Shown in pieces: positions 3,224 to 10,877 of a stretch of DNA of 15,225 nucleotides. The stretch comes from a virus. Under the pieces are notes generated by a model. It saw only the letters and a list, made by a program, of their open reading frames with translations. It was not told the origin of the DNA and searched no databases. Within the stretch, counting starts at the first letter, position 1. Each line of letters opens with the position of its first letter. The stretch lies in UHGV virus genome UHGV-0070361, one strand, 5' to 3'. Made by a program: the position numbers and the translations under genes.

Positions 3224-4156
3224 ATGACTGATATTAACGATGTAATCAAGACCATAGATGAACTTATTGATGGCGGCGTACTGACGCAGTATGCCATCGC
3301 CAGGGAGGCGGGAATTTCCGACGGCACATTATCGGCTTTCCGCAAAGGGAAATATAAAGGAGACAATGATGCTATAACGGCGGCCATGCTTTCCTGGTAT
3401 GAAAACTGGAATAAACAAAGCGCACTGTCCGAGCTGCCACAGTTTGTGGAAACGCAGACAGTCCAGGAGCTGCGCGCACTGTTTCAGGCGGTTCGCCTGA
3501 TGGGCTGTATTAACGTCATAGTGGGCGTGCCGGGTGTGGGTAAAACGGCCACCGCCCGTAATTACTGCCAGGAGCAACCGAACACCTGGATGATCACCCT
3601 GTCACCCGCGCACTCCAGCGTCACGGAGTGTCTGCTGGAGCTGGCAGAGGAACTGGGGATTGATTACACCCGCGCGAACAAAGGGGCATTATCCCGCGCC
3701 ATCCGCCGTCGCCTGATGGGAAAGCGCGGACTGGTGATTGTTGATGAGGCTGATCATCTTGGTATTGACGGTCTGGAGCAACTCCGGGCAATCCAGGACG
3801 CCACAGGGGTCGGGATGGTGCTTATTGGTAACCCAAAGGGGCTGTTTAAAGGCGGACGCCGCGCCGTTGATGATTTATCTCGCCTGTTCAGCCGTCTTGC
3901 CCGTACAAAACAACTACGCAAGGCCAAAAAAGCGGATGTGCTGGCTATTGCCAGGGCATGGGGGATTAGTGGTGAGGCCGAGCTGGCTGTCATGCAGGCT
4001 ATCGCTGAAAAACCGGGGGCATTACGCGTTCTGACGCATACGCTTAACCAGGCGTGGATCACCGCCAGCGGTGAAGGTGCGGCACTGACAGAAAAACATA
4101 TTAATGCGGCCTTTAAAGAGGTTTATGCCAACCCTGAATTACTCTCACAGGTGTGA
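3224..4156 (+). CDS. B: Mu B-like AAA+ ATPase, transposition target DNA activator
   Basis: 310 aa (MuB is about 312 aa). Walker A GVPGVGKT and Walker B LVIVDEADHL. N-terminal HTH-like region. Immediately downstream of the transposase. GAGG lies 7 nt upstream of the ATG. Confidence 0.85.
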   Translation: MTDINDVIKTIDELIDGGVLTQYAIAREAGISDGTLSAFRKGKYKGDNDAITAAMLSWYENWNKQSALSELPQFVETQTVQELRALFQAVRLMGCINVIVGVPGVGKTATARNYCQEQPNTWMITLSPAHSSVTECLLELAEELGIDYTRANKGALSRAIRRRLMGKRGLVIVDEADHLGIDGLEQLRAIQDATGVGMVLIGNPKGLFKGGRRAVDDLSRLFSRLARTKQLRKAKKADVLAIARAWGISGEAELAVMQAIAEKPGALRVLTHTLNQAWITASGEGAALTEKHINAAFKEVYANPELLSQV

Positions 4157-4380
4157 TTATGATTGCATTTAATATTCCTGATATTTACGGACGCTTTCAC
4201 CTGGTGAATTTCGATAACGTCAAAGCAGTCTCCGTGTCTGACAGTGAAGAATGTGGCGATTTACTTTTTGAATTTAATGATCGCACCAGAATGGCAATAT
4301 CGGCAGGACTTGATCGTGAAGGTGCGAAAGAAGCTTACAGCAATATTTGTCGTTTTATCGGTGCAAAACGAATCAGCTAA
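4153..4380 (+). CDS. Hypothetical small protein, first gene after B (position of Mu kil); 75 aa
   Basis: ORF starts at GTG 4153 overlapping the B stop (GTGA), or at ATG 4159. Visibly more AT-rich than A and B. Same position and size as kil in Mu, but no sequence-level recognition is claimed. Confidence 0.45.
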   Translation: MIMIAFNIPDIYGRFHLVNFDNVKAVSVSDSEECGDLLFEFNDRTRMAISAGLDREGAKEAYSNICRFIGAKRIS

Positions 4381-4392
4381 ACGAGGTGTTAT

Positions 4393-5025
4393 ATGAATAC
4401 GCAGATACAGCAGGAAATCAATGTTCTCCACAGCTTTCGAGAGTTTAACGACAATGGCTGTGAGGTTCGTGATTATATCTATGAATTGATGATCGGTGAT
4501 GGTGTGTGTTTTCTGTATATAGACCTGTATCAGTGGTATGCAGACATGCAACTTGATTCCATCAGACGCCGTTTTAATCATGAATGCTTTGATGTGGATG
4601 TATGGGAAAGCCTGCGCTTTGGTTTTCTGATTATGGATGATTATCGCCAGGGGTGGCGACACGGTTACTCCATTCTTCGTGCAATCATGCGTGGCGAAAC
4701 CCGAAAAATTCCGGGGATGGGTAAAGTTAATCGAGGCTTCCTGTCAGAGCTGGCTGCATTGCGCATGAATCCATTACTGATACAACCGGAGTTCCCTATG
4801 AATTTGTTTGATTCACTGAATAACGCCCGCCGCCTGACTGAACTTGCTGGTGCGGTACTGGAGCGCAGCAAACGCTACCCGCAACGTTTTGCACTGAAAA
4901 CCACGCCGCCGGTAAACGAAGTTAAGGGAACCGGTGAAATTGAAATCACCGTTAAGACCAACGGCCTGCGCCGCCGTGTGAAGGCCACCCGTATAAGCGG
5001 ATGCACGGTTTACTGGGAAGTATGA
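4393..5025 (+). CDS. Hypothetical protein, 210 aa, semi-essential early region
   Basis: ATG 4393 with GAGG 6 nt upstream, 12 nt after the previous stop, co-oriented with the early operon. No recognisable motif. Confidence 0.5.
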   Translation: MNTQIQQEINVLHSFREFNDNGCEVRDYIYELMIGDGVCFLYIDLYQWYADMQLDSIRRRFNHECFDVDVWESLRFGFLIMDDYRQGWRHGYSILRAIMRGETRKIPGMGKVNRGFLSELAALRMNPLLIQPEFPMNLFDSLNNARRLTELAGAVLERSKRYPQRFALKTTPPVNEVKGTGEIEITVKTNGLRRRVKATRISGCTVYWEV

Positions 5026-6253: not shown

Positions 6254-6331
6254 GGGCGCGCGGCAGGGGGCTGGTCGCGCCTGCATGCAAATTTATCGCG
6301 CTCGCGTCAGGGGACTGCTCGCGCCTGAATG
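6254..6331. repeat. GC-rich imperfect tandem direct repeat (CAGGGGGCTGGTCGCGCCTGCATG at 6264-6287, CAGGGGACTGCTCGCGCCTGAATG at 6308-6331), 21/24 identical
   Basis: Read directly from the sequence. GC-rich island inside an otherwise AT-rich intergenic region immediately upstream of the AT-rich gene at 6341. The GGCGCG/CGCGCC segments can pair. Two mini-ORFs (25 and 15 codons) run through the repeats. Confidence 0.6.
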
Positions 6332-6340
6332 AGGCATGTC

Positions 6341-6919
6341 ATGAGTATTAAATATCGTTATTTTAAAATGAATGAGAGCGATTCCCGTCATTATCACAGG
6401 GAATGGCTTGATTGTGTTGGCAGGGAGCGCCAGAAATTGATTGATGATTTTCTCAGTAATCAGAATGCCAGAGGGTATTGTTATTCCTGGTATTGTGGGG
6501 ATTTTTTTGTCAAATCAATACTGGTGCATGAGGATGTTGATGTCGGAAGAAATAAACGGGTGTTGTCTGATAAATTTGATGAAGATGGCCGTACTTTATT
6601 TTCAGTTAAGCCCGACCGCAGATTCAGAGAGGAAAAAAAACTGAACAAAGCACTGAATATCTTAAACGAGAAGTTAAAACAGCTTCCGTCATTCAGTACC
6701 TGGATGGTTAATAAACTGGACTGCTATTTTGAGGTTTTTGGTGTCAGCAACGGCCGCACAGTTATGGCGTGCTCTTCTGCCGGGTTCTATGGCGACAAAG
6801 GGGCTGTTGTGGTTCGTATTCCTGTCGGTGAATCAGATAATGCCTTTTCACCTGAAAAGCTGCATCCGTCATTGATGGCAATCAAGCATTCCGAATTCAT
6901 CGCAATAACGGAGGAATAA
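6341..6919 (+). CDS. Hypothetical protein, 192 aa, AT-rich, first gene of a six-gene coupled block
   Basis: Start at internal ATG 6341 (GAGG 6 nt upstream) rather than ATG 6329 (no RBS). Composition is markedly more AT-rich than flanking phage genes. No recognisable motif. Confidence 0.5.
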   Translation: MSIKYRYFKMNESDSRHYHREWLDCVGRERQKLIDDFLSNQNARGYCYSWYCGDFFVKSILVHEDVDVGRNKRVLSDKFDEDGRTLFSVKPDRRFREEKKLNKALNILNEKLKQLPSFSTWMVNKLDCYFEVFGVSNGRTVMACSSAGFYGDKGAVVVRIPVGESDNAFSPEKLHPSLMAIKHSEFIAITEE

Positions 6920-8526: not shown

Positions 8527-8855
8527 TAACGACCTTATTTGTTGAATCAGACGAACCTCTGGTATGTGCCGCCGGGATGCCGGTCTGTGGCGGAACCCTG
8601 ACCGGGGTTTATTTCGGGGATTTGCGCGGTTATCCCTGGCATTCACTGAATGATGCTTTCCCGCCTGATATGGAGGCTGTTGTACTGATTGTTCAGTACG
8701 GTCACCGACAGGAGCTGCGCATCGGCCATATCGGGTATGAAGGTTTTTTTGTTGATGAAGAAACCGGAGCCTGCCTTGAAGATGAGGATGGACAGGTGAC
8801 GCACTGGTGCCATATTTCGGCTTTACCGGAATTACGGGAGATACACAATGGATGA
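8523..8855 (+). CDS. Hypothetical protein, 110 aa, possibly DUF551-like (C-terminal VTHW ... LPE)
   Basis: ATGA overlap with the previous gene. The C-terminal motif QVTHWCHISALPE resembles the THWMPLPEPP ending that I recall for DUF551 prophage proteins; weak recognition. Confidence 0.4.
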   Translation: MITTLFVESDEPLVCAAGMPVCGGTLTGVYFGDLRGYPWHSLNDAFPPDMEAVVLIVQYGHRQELRIGHIGYEGFFVDEETGACLEDEDGQVTHWCHISALPELREIHNG

Positions 8856-9159
8856 GCAAATAACGGACAATATTTCTCTGCTGTTCTGGTGTTTATATAT
8901 CACATCGTTTTTCGGCGCATTTGTTATCACCCGGTGGTTATGCCGGAAAATTATCAGCCTTTTTGATAAAAGATATCTGCTTGAGCTGGCTGCGGATGCG
9001 CTTATTCAGCAGGCCATTGTGTTATACAGCGGTGAGTTTTTCTGCCGAATAACAACCAGAGATGGCTGGCACATAATGATTATTCCGCCAACGCATCATA
9101 TCCGGTGGAATGAGCCAGAAAAGGCTTTCCATGTCCGTAAAAAGGTAAATACGGTATGA
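8848..9159 (+). CDS. Hypothetical small membrane protein, 103 aa, one N-terminal TM helix
   Basis: 8-nt overlap with the previous gene. Hydrophobic segment ISLLFWCLYITSFFGAFVITRWL. Contains copy 2 of the 20-nt element near its 5' end. Confidence 0.45.
   Translation: MDEQITDNISLLFWCLYITSFFGAFVITRWLCRKIISLFDKRYLLELAADALIQQAIVLYSGEFFCRITTRDGWHIMIIPPTHHIRWNEPEKAFHVRKKVNTV
8892..8911. repeat. 20-nt element TTTATATATCACATCGTTTT, copy 2 of 2
   Basis: 19/20 identical to 6227..6246; lies inside the coding sequence of the membrane-protein gene at 8848. Confidence 0.6.
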
Positions 9160-9665
9160 GAGGAAAACTGATATCTGCCATTCATGTGGCAAAACGCGAG
9201 CTTGCTCTGGATGATGAAACCTATACATCCGCACTGCTGGCAGCCACCGGTAAAGCCAGTTGCCGGGATATGTCACCGGATGAGTTATCCCGCGTACTGG
9301 ATGTTTTCAAAAAACGCGGTTTTAAAGTGCGTCAGAAACCGGTTAACCGGGCCTTAAAGCCGGGTACGGTGACCGCCAAAATTCGCGCCATCTGGAAAGT
9401 GATGCACCGGCAGGGCTTTATTTCTGATGGTGCGGAAACGGCCCTTAACCGCTGGGTGAAATCGCAGACGGCCGCGCAGAACGGCGGCGAAGGTGTGGCT
9501 AACTGGCAGTGGCTGGAGCAACACCCCGAGCTGGCCTCTGATGTGCTGGAGCGTCTCAAACGCTGGCACCGCCGCAAAATGCTGGCAGCCCTGGATATGT
9601 CGGAGCGTGCAGTGATGAGTTATGAGCGCGTTTGCAGGCTGTATGAAAAATCATTCCCCTGTTAA
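9156..9665 (+). CDS. gemA: GemA-like phage regulatory protein (Mu gp16 / DUF1018 family)
   Basis: 169 aa. N-terminus LISAIHVAKRELALDDETYTSALLAATGKASCRDMSPDELSRVLDVFKKRGF fits the conserved GemA-family pattern as I recall it (LIAKIH.AK..LGLDD..YR ... TGK.S ... GF). Lies upstream of the Mor-family gene as in Mu. ATGA overlap with the previous gene. Confidence 0.75.
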   Translation: MRGKLISAIHVAKRELALDDETYTSALLAATGKASCRDMSPDELSRVLDVFKKRGFKVRQKPVNRALKPGTVTAKIRAIWKVMHRQGFISDGAETALNRWVKSQTAAQNGGEGVANWQWLEQHPELASDVLERLKRWHRRKMLAALDMSERAVMSYERVCRLYEKSFPC

Positions 9666-9668
9666 CCC

Positions 9669-9699
9669 AAATCCCGCCACAGTGCGGGATTTTATTTTT
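9669..9699 (+). terminator. Rho-independent terminator hairpin AAATCCCGC-cacagt-GCGGGATTT followed by TATTTTT; left copy of a duplicated pair
   Basis: Perfect 9-bp stem, 6-nt loop and T-run, starting 4 nt after the gemA stop. The stop codon of the antisense gene 9692..10114 lies inside its T-tail. Confidence 0.75.
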
Positions 9700-10114
9700 C
9701 CTGAATTTCCGTTTCTGACGGGATTATGCAACCAATTGTTTCATCTGGTTTTTCATATAACGCTATCAATTTAGCCAGCTCATCAGCATCAAAGTTATAA
9801 AATTCAGTTTGTTTAGTTGTCTCCTGATAGTGTTCCCAGCTACGAACAATGACGCTACGAATAACTTTCTTTTCCGGGGGTGTTTGTTTTGTTGGTTTAC
9901 GATGTAACCACGTCTGAAACATACTGGCTAATGCCTGCCAGAACCCATCGCATGAAGCTGCGGCCAGAACGATCAATACAATATCGCTTCCGGCAGCACT
10001 AAGTGTTGCTGCTTCTATATTATGATTTGTAAGTTTATACTCTTTCGCCAGATCATTGAGTTCATGGGCCAGTTCTGGTGGGCACGATAAAAGCAAAGAT
10101 GGAGGTTGTTTCAT
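9692..10114 (-). CDS. Hypothetical protein, 140 aa, antisense to the phage early operon, inside the hairpin-bracketed AT-rich insertion
   Basis: Long ORF in AT-rich DNA. Over the stretch I tabulated, codon first positions are G/A-rich and third positions AT-rich, consistent with real coding. AGGAAG-type RBS 6-9 nt upstream on the minus strand. No recognisable family by eye. Confidence 0.5.
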   Translation of the reverse strand: MKQPPSLLLSCPPELAHELNDLAKEYKLTNHNIEAATLSAAGSDIVLIVLAAASCDGFWQALASMFQTWLHRKPTKQTPPEKKVIRSVIVRSWEHYQETTKQTEFYNFDADELAKLIALYEKPDETIGCIIPSETEIQEK

Positions 10115-10349
10115 GGATATCTTCCTTTATTCCGGTGGAACGCTGTCAGGCAGACTGAAATTATTTGTTTTTGCACTGGAGCAAGCCTGGTGTGCTTTAA
10201 GAGTTGGGATAATTGGTTTTCATGTTGATGAAACAACAATAACCCGCAATATGCACAAGCTTTTTGATAAGAAAAACTCCTTCAGGGTTTGTATTTTTAA
10301 AAATAAAAACGATCTTTATCATATAGTTACACCGGAAAATGATCAATAA
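10113..10349 (+). CDS. Possible small protein, 78 aa, inside the insertion (alternative or additional to the antisense gene)
   Basis: Internal ATG 10113 of ORF 10056..10349 with a strong GGAGG 7 nt upstream; stop about 40 nt before the right-hand terminator hairpin. Its start overlaps the antisense gene's start by 2 nt (CATG). Could instead be the promoter/leader region of the antisense gene. Confidence 0.3.
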   Translation: MDIFLYSGGTLSGRLKLFVFALEQAWCALRVGIIGFHVDETTITRNMHKLFDKKNSFRVCIFKNKNDLYHIVTPENDQ

Positions 10350-10388
10350 ATACACAGCTCATTTCGGGTTATGATTTACAGCGCCTCT

Positions 10389-10419
10389 AAATCCCGCCAC
10401 AGCGCGGGATTTTTATTTT
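10389..10419 (+). terminator. Rho-independent terminator hairpin AAATCCCGC-cacagc-GCGGGATTT followed by TTATTTT; right copy of the duplicated pair
   Basis: Near-identical to 9669..9699 (one loop substitution, slightly different T-tail). Lies 35 nt upstream of the Mor-family gene. Confidence 0.75.
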
Positions 10420-10454: not shown

Positions 10455-10877
10455 ATGGCTGAAACACAGATGAGCATGTTTGGTGACAGCGAACAGCTGC
10501 ACGCGCTGATTGACCGTCTGGATGACATTCCTGATGATGAGCTGAAAAAGAACTGGCCCGGCACGCTGCGGGACCTGGTTGATGTGATCAGTGCTGAACT
10601 GCACCGTCAGGGGATTGAACCTGCTCAGGCAGGAATGCTTGCCCGTAAAGTTGCGGCCGCACAGGCCGGGTACATGGGCGGGCGTGGTTATTATCTCCCG
10701 GTCGGTGAATCCCTTTTCACCGAACTGCGCAATAATGAGATTTTTTCCCGCTGGAGCCAGGGCGAAAAAATTGAAACCCTGCGCCGCCATTACAGGATGT
10801 CAGAAACCCAGATTTATACCGTCATACGCGAACAGCGCCGTCTGCATCTGGCAAGAACGCAACCGCCACTTTTCTGA
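10455..10877 (+). CDS. mor: Mor/C-family transcriptional activator (middle/late gene activator of Mu-like phages)
   Basis: 140 aa. C-terminal two-thirds align by eye with Mu Mor as I recall it (GYMGGRGYYLPVGESL ... IETLRRHYRMSETQIYTVIREQRRL ... QPPLF against GGGQVYIPRGQAL ... TTRYGVTFNTVYKAIRRMRRL ... QPSLL). GGAGG 5 nt upstream. Only one family member is present in the window. Confidence 0.8.
   Translation: MAETQMSMFGDSEQLHALIDRLDDIPDDELKKNWPGTLRDLVDVISAELHRQGIEPAQAGMLARKVAAAQAGYMGGRGYYLPVGESLFTELRNNEIFSRWSQGEKIETLRRHYRMSETQIYTVIREQRRLHLARTQPPLF

Follow-up and report, generated by a model that had tools for sequence, protein, structure and literature searches.

The virus genome UHGV-0070361 is represented here by 15,225 nucleotides (the window, meaning the whole stretch of DNA that was analysed), which form the left half of a Mu-like prophage of Escherichia coli. 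Between its gemA and mor genes lies an AT-rich cassette, referred to as cassette A, carrying two oppositely oriented genes with overlapping start codons: a gene of 140 amino acids (aa) antisense to the early operon and a gene of 78 aa in the sense direction. Cassette A is probably a moron-type accessory module, expressed in the lysogen, which occupies an exchange hotspot between gemA and mor in an enterobacterial lineage of Mu-like prophages. As such, it is an ordinary kind of phage feature and not a new type of element. The features concerned are the following, in coordinates of the window.

9156..9665, plus strand: gemA (gp16 family), the left conserved flank (PF06252 GemA, E=6.4e-30; "gp16 family protein" in RefSeq).
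9669..9699, plus strand: left hairpin and T-run, an intrinsic terminator of the sense strand 3' of gemA (from folding; kept in relatives).
9700..10388, no strand assigned: AT-rich cargo of 689 bp, missing from most relatives (from composition and comparison).
9692..10114, minus strand: 140-aa gene of cassette A (open reading frame, ORF; RefSeq WP_001536796.1, hypothetical).
10121..10126, minus strand: Shine-Dalgarno-like AAGGAA of the 140-aa gene, 6 nt 5' of its ATG (read from the sequence).
10101..10105, plus strand: GGAGG ribosome-binding site of the small sense gene, 7 nt 5' of its ATG and within codons 4-5 of the antisense gene (read from the sequence).
10113..10349, plus strand: small sense gene, 78 aa, with one hydrophobic stretch (ORF; RefSeq WP_024192020.1, hypothetical).
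10318..10346, minus strand: predicted sigma-70 promoter of the antisense transcript (-35 TTGATC at 10346-10341, 17-nt spacer, -10 TATGAT at 10323-10318).
10389..10419, plus strand: right hairpin and T-run, the copy that stands 5' of mor in empty sites (from folding and comparison).
10455..10877, plus strand: mor (middle-operon activator), the right conserved flank (PF08765 Mor, E=1e-30).

The junction was surveyed in 5426 complete Escherichia coli genomes, 231 of which carry this gemA-mor pair, and occupancy was scored on the best 60 rows together with an even sample of 60 taken down the ranking. Cassette A is present in four of the 231 carriers, at 100% identity, and a different cargo, cassette B, in two others, the mouse isolates M1 and M3. 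All other rows sampled have spans of ~1003-1005 bp or 942-981 bp, as expected for an empty site made up of the gemA stop codon, one hairpin, 42 nt and mor, with a gap of 75-76 nt between the two genes. Strains lysogenic for a prophage with cassette A include STEC2018-607, CP55_Sichuan, STEC1587 and JNEC-KY203. Cassette A DNA was found only in the gemA-mor slot of Mu-like prophages (4 of the 5426 genomes), always as a single copy. Further relatives, drawn from viral contigs, Logan assemblies and Citrobacter, include some empty sites, B-type cassettes and two additional cargos, C and D; those from Salmonella contain cassette B or the antisense cargo C or D. The antisense proteins of cassette B have 111-113 aa, and B-type proteins elsewhere are 54-61% identical to that of M3. 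Cargo C (L067:2899-3330, minus strand) encodes a protein of 143 aa with a GTG start codon and a signal peptide, matching phrog_15648 (no known function), and cargo D (L069:2991-3311, minus strand) one of 106 aa, also with a signal peptide, which is named "periplasmic protein" in one source. Cargos B, C and D are all antisense to the early operon and have a guanine-plus-cytosine (GC) content of 41-44%. Other scans added little: of two scans of genome contigs, the first returned no locus and the second a single empty-site locus of Citrobacter, a metagenome scan returned nothing, and a viral scan with an A+B profile returned only loci already known.

The initial annotation had taken the insert for extra material at a module junction, and the junction comparison reveals it as variable cargo, with empty single-hairpin sites in all other sampled E. 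coli relatives; a slot that is empty or alternatively occupied in relatives is not a conserved core with a known early function. Its statement that gemA in Mu is followed directly by mor is also correct, the two Mu genes overlapping by 4 nt with nothing between them. The empty site is the common state; it may be ancestral or may have arisen by deletion between the repeats.

Two comparisons give opposite patterns of identity. Against M3, a carrier of cassette B, the window is 98.8% identical over 1013 nt on the left, through the left hairpin, and 100% identical from the right hairpin to the start of mor, while the cargo between is at ~49% and is unrelated at the DNA level. Against L007, which carries a diverged copy of cassette A, the cargo is 97.4% identical, whereas gemA is at 91%, mor at 94% and the upstream genes at ~82%. 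Because the patterns are opposite, the cassette is inherited and exchanged as a unit, apart from the backbone, and because identity to the carrier of cassette B drops exactly at the hairpins, the alignments mark the gemA|mor slot as a cassette-exchange hotspot for alternative accessory cargo. Acquisition by recombination at a pre-existing terminator had been proposed for this insert, and the hairpins are indeed the exact boundaries of exchange.

The contrast in composition noted earlier between the insert and the phage backbone is likewise real. The cargo (9700-10388) has a GC content of 39.6%, whereas the window as a whole is at 51.1% and gemA and mor are at 54%; among windows of the same size, just 1.8% are equally AT-rich, and GC at third codon positions (GC3) is 0.32-0.33 in the two cassette ORFs versus 0.56-0.58 in backbone genes. 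Phage morons, a concept of Hendrix and Juhala, are exemplified by gp15 of HK97, bor and lom of lambda, and accessory genes of Pseudomonas Mu-like phages. Like them, the cassette is extra DNA lying between genes that are adjacent in related phages (as seen from the empty sites and the overlap in Mu), differs from its neighbours in composition (39.6% versus 54% GC; GC3 of 0.33 versus 0.57), and at the sequence level has a promoter-like site of its own and a terminator hairpin at the stop codon, with a weak U-tract on the minus strand, in an orientation against the lytic operon (for the definition of a moron, see PMC4378225). Unlike typical morons, it has two opposite-strand genes with overlapping starts, its terminator is a duplicate of the resident inter-gene hairpin, and its expression in the lysogen is predicted. 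Prophage accessory loci characteristically combine an antisense orientation with a promoter of their own (PMC7067206). The assignment to morons is an architectural one, because no family was found for either protein.

A promoter scan picks the same site in the window (10346-10318) and in M3. This site belongs to a block of ~45 bp that lies immediately beyond the 3' end of the small gene; apart from it and the hairpins, no DNA is conserved between cassettes A and B. On the minus strand the block consists of TATTGATC, 17 nt and (T/C)ATGATAA; six cassettes of types A and B have invariant hexamers but differ from one another in the spacer and the surroundings, and the neighbouring DNA is no longer alignable. 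For the small gene, no promoter on the sense strand common to A and B was found. From the position of the hexamers, the antisense transcript is predicted to start near 10309-10311 and to have a leader of ~195 nt, fully complementary to the small gene. GATC (Dam) sites are situated at 10341-10346, in the -35 element, and at 10311-10314, just 3' of the -10 element; most A and B cassettes retain them, and the promoter may be methylation-sensitive. A candidate site for integration host factor in the conserved block was rejected by eye.

The early operon of Mu ends with mor, according to the passage of PMC9936078 that cites Mathee and Howe (1990). Given this, and a distance of only 42 nt between mor and the right hairpin, early transcription would have to cross the cassette, and read-through toward mor would supply mRNA for the small gene. 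The 140-aa gene would be transcribed leftward from the conserved sigma-70 promoter (10346-10318), independently of the repressed early operon, and its protein would be made in the lysogen from a transcript ending at the left hairpin. The 78-aa protein would be made only when early transcripts read through the left hairpin toward mor, that is, during lytic growth. Since the ~195-nt leader is complementary to the small gene and each ribosome-binding site is embedded in the other gene, expression of the two genes is expected to be mutually exclusive, in the manner of an excludon. As to function, it may be speculated that the lysogen-expressed protein serves an interaction between host and phage, such as superinfection exclusion, defence or conversion, in the way of other morons. 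There is a slight possibility that the A/B module is an undescribed toggle between lysogeny and lysis: the antisense mRNA would make the 140-aa protein while its leader silences the small membrane protein, early read-through upon induction or from a superinfecting relative would reverse this state, and the outcome might be exclusion, abortive infection or gating of Mor.

Excludons, with long antisense 5' leaders spanning a divergent gene, were described in Listeria. The predicted ~195-nt leader would similarly cover the divergent small gene including its ribosome-binding site, although in the cassette this arrangement is deduced from the position of the promoter only. A second precedent is the Pseudomonas Mu-like phage Fc02, in which olg1/sie1 and gene 10 overlap on opposite strands; one is expressed in the lysogen and the other from the early lytic operon, and both are tied to superinfection exclusion (PMC9936078). 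By analogy with these genes, a part in exclusion or defence is plausible for the cassette. The cassette resembles this locus in having genes on both strands within the early region of a transposable phage. It differs in its site, which is gemA|mor here and next to c/ner in Fc02, in the lack of sequence similarity, and in the extent of overlap: the Fc02 genes overlap extensively, whereas in the cassette only start codons and leaders do.

The predicted antisense promoter is the most conserved DNA of the cassette and would oppose early transcription head-on, two sense terminators stand in series, and the whole lies immediately 5' of mor, which needs read-through. It could thus be argued that the module mainly regulates the development of the phage, damping or delaying Mor and thereby stabilizing lysogeny, or blocking a superinfecting sibling by RNA antisense or transcriptional interference, with its proteins being secondary. 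A prophage antisense RNA, STnc6030 of BTP1, does exclude its own phage type (PMC7067206). This explanation is nevertheless considered unlikely, as ~97% of the E. coli relatives are without the cassette, both proteins of cassette B are under purifying selection, and cargos C and D, in the same slot, encode secreted proteins and have neither the conserved block nor the small gene.

The arrangement of the two genes is the same in cassettes A and B. In the window, the ATGs of the two genes meet in a common palindrome, CATG, at 10112-10115; every B cassette has a small sense ORF back-to-back with the antisense gene, and their start codons abut as CATATG. Each gene's ribosome-binding site falls inside the other gene. 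The plausible ribosome-binding site attributed earlier to the 140-aa ORF is the AAGGAA 6 nt before its ATG, and the strong one attributed to the 78-aa ORF is confirmed as GGAGG; the latter ORF had been given only as a possibility, and its counterparts in B cassettes, proteins of 63-64 aa encoded at the same position, are under purifying selection. The antisense gene had also been described as self-contained. This holds in that it has a promoter-like element of its own, which is conserved over diverged cassettes, but the cassette as a whole is a head-to-head unit of two genes. Cargos C and D are without the small gene and also without the conserved promoter block; next to the D gene is an abutting ORF of 30 codons, in which the changes between copies are non-synonymous.

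The small proteins reach a maximum hydropathy of 1.5-1.9 over 19 residues and have a charged tail, and the small protein is probably a single-pass membrane protein. A small hydrophobic protein gene overlapped by a predicted antisense transcript recalls type I toxin-antitoxin pairs such as hok/sok and tisB/istR. Accordingly, the cassette might be imagined as a type I toxin-antitoxin-like or abortive-infection pair, in which a membrane toxin is silenced in the lysogen by the antisense leader and released when sense transcription dominates. The size of the small proteins (63-78 aa, with one hydrophobic stretch), their strong conservation and the completeness of the antisense overlap, which spans the ribosome-binding site and the start codon, are in keeping with such a pair. 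It is quite unlikely all the same: in contrast to the RNA antitoxin of type I systems, the antisense partner here is a protein-coding mRNA whose gene is under selection in cassette B, the small protein has a hydrophilic tail of 25-40 residues and, in cassette A, charged residues inside the hydrophobic stretch, and it matches no known toxin family.

Evidence for coding is clearest in cassette B, for which M3 was compared with Salmonella cassettes at 59-66% DNA identity. The ratio of non-synonymous to synonymous substitution rates (ω) is 0.12-0.33 for the antisense gene and 0.07-0.16 for the small sense gene, and changes in the small gene are in strong excess at the third codon position (e.g., 20, 7 and 40 changes at positions 1, 2 and 3). 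Because ω is low in both and the small gene has this third-position excess, the comparison identifies both ORFs of cassette B as real genes under purifying selection. For cassette A, the coding comparison was with a single diverged allele, the 97%-identical copy of L007: the 140-aa gene has 6 synonymous and 7 non-synonymous codon changes (ω=0.31) and the 78-aa gene 3 synonymous changes and 1 non-synonymous change (ω 0.08). These substitutions are consistent with coding, but weakly so. Contigs that encode the identical protein number 524 for the 140-aa gene and 352 for the 78-aa gene; from its distribution, the 140-aa gene is an ORFan limited to E. coli and Shigella.

The A and B proteins align collinearly at ~25% identity. 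When A was compared with B in hhalign, P was 0.028 for the large proteins and 0.032 for the small ones. Against a hidden Markov model (HMM) of the B proteins, 1 of 5000 shuffles of the 140-aa protein scored as high as the protein itself, and for the small protein 276 of 5000 did so; among the controls, reversed sequences and the D protein were unremarkable, while the score of the C protein was reached by 70 of 5000 shuffles, so that the test is not perfectly clean. On account of these scores, the identical layout and the shared promoter block, A and B are probably, though not provably, one module that has diverged, and not independent acquisitions.

It might still be supposed that the ORFs of cassette A are non-functional and that decaying AT-rich DNA is carried neutrally. 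Informative substitutions are few (the ω of 0.31 for the 140-aa gene comes from 13 changes), truncated variants exist, and among 1.8 billion representative proteins only near-identical copies are found. Against this, both ORFs have been preserved on different backbones at a DNA identity of 97%, each is preceded by a good ribosome-binding site, and the layout, the overlap of starts and the promoter are common to cassette B, where selection is clear; neutral carriage is accordingly given little credence.

The hairpins that bound the cargo had been described as near-identical, terminator-like direct repeats about 720 bp apart, and they prove to be direct repeats of 31 nt that lie exactly 720 bp apart. 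The left hairpin is AAATCCCGCCACAGTGCGGGATTT at 9669-9692 and the right hairpin AAATCCCGCCACAGCGCGGGATTT at 10389-10412 (24 nt each); in both, a stem of 9 bp encloses a loop of 6 nt and a T-run follows, with a folding energy of ~ -13 kcal/mol each and z-scores of ~ -3. The motif occurs twice in the window and nowhere else in it, and 0 of 200 shuffles matched it. In all relatives examined, empty or occupied, the left hairpin is intact beside the gemA stop codon. From the right hairpin onward, the sequence of the window is identical to that of empty-site relatives. This right copy is complete in cassette A and in the cassette B of M3, and in Salmonella, where the cassettes are of types B, C and D, it has a degenerate 5' arm and retains only the 3' half and T-run (e.g., GTCTGTCGCCACAGCGCGGGATTTTT); cargos C and D share a right-end motif, TCACATTTCGGAAAA, ahead of the degenerate copy. 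The duplicated length varies by cassette type from ~17 to 31 nt. Thus, the right hairpin is best seen as the hairpin upstream of mor, duplicated during insertion or recombination, and not as an insulator. It cannot terminate the antisense transcript because it lies upstream of the predicted antisense promoter, and the initial annotation, which regarded the gene as terminator-insulated, was wrong with respect to this hairpin, all the more in view of its degenerate 5' arm in Salmonella.

In another Mu-like prophage, the gemA-mor spacer contains a gene for an IS4-like DDE transposase (L014:2595-3932, 445 aa), and so the spacer also accepts true mobile elements. That cassette A is itself a hairpin-targeting mobile element (an insertion sequence, a miniature inverted-repeat transposable element or something like an integron cassette), with the 31-nt repeats flanking the cargo as target duplication or recombination sites, is very improbable in spite of this landing and of breakpoints that coincide with the hairpins, since the cassette has no transposase, integrase or terminal inverted repeats, occupies a single slot once each in 4 of 5426 genomes with the hairpin not dispersed, and has duplications of ~17 to 31 nt, which fit recombination or slippage better than a fixed target duplication.

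Several points weigh against an accessory module expressed in the lysogen. Neither protein was assigned to a known family, as the initial annotation had also found: searches of Pfam, PHROGs, NCBIfam and PADLOC with the 140-aa, 78-aa, B and D proteins gave only sub-threshold noise. Structure prediction, which had been proposed as a check, was of no help, as the AlphaFold2 models were unusable (pLDDT, predicted local distance difference test, of 51 from the single sequence and 38 from an alignment of 7 sequences). Direct coding evidence for cassette A is thin, with 13 and 4 substitutions, and variants of the 140-aa gene occur, namely P0011, truncated to 86 aa and found on 27 contigs, and P0002, of 115 aa with an in-frame deletion. 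The homology between A and B is only suggestive, and the use of the promoter and of the terminator is a matter of prediction. In addition, the left stem, read on the minus strand, directly follows the stop codon of the 140-aa gene and is then followed only by UUUGGGUU; on this strand it would be a weaker terminator, and antisense termination may be leaky.

The deletion in P0002 removes 25 residues in frame, between two TKQT repeats, and in some lineages the 140-aa gene may be undergoing loss. A lipoprotein or signal peptide was considered for the 140-aa protein and rejected by eye, the hydrophobic region before Cys 11 being too short. Further searches for homologues were made in several collections. 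A word index of 5.8 billion sequences and HMMER on 1.8 billion representatives gave only near-identical E. coli and Shigella copies and fragments; a match to a eukaryote-like repeat protein of 1309 aa was rejected as spurious. The A+B profile found nothing new, tblastn gave no match in phage genomes, Rfam yielded only sub-threshold matches, and the defence models of PADLOC-DB v2 matched none of the A, B, C or D proteins.

Other variable places were seen in the same region of these prophages. In some relatives, a second antisense slot is present just 5' of gemA; the ORFs in it have 79 aa or 136 aa and run against the early operon (L005:164-403, L014:1667-1906, both minus strand, and L038:4945-5355); the window has sense-strand genes there. 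Additional AT-rich pockets of the early region in the window (4051-4650, 6300-6750 and 8848-9159; GC 0.39-0.43) contain sense-strand ORFs with no family or only DUF5420 (6329-6919), and these may be further variable cargo. In a degraded prophage (L020:1003-1911), an ORF of 302 aa begins as the N-terminal part of transposase A and ends with the final residues of GemA; this fusion removes the entire semi-essential early region, after which the hairpin and mor are intact. Two records of Shiga toxin (Stx)-converting phages, LC727881.1 and LC727895.1 (L002), contain an inserted Mu-like phage with an empty gemA-mor site (75-nt gap).

Collectively, the comparisons define gemA|mor as an accessory hotspot in Mu-like prophages of E. 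coli, including carriers among Shiga toxin-producing E. coli, and of Salmonella. At least four alternative antisense cargos occupy this slot, all of them uncharacterised, and they are candidates for exclusion, defence or conversion factors expressed in the lysogen. The A/B module offers a compact natural case of conserved opposite-strand genes with overlapping starts, which may be used for the study of mutually exclusive expression.

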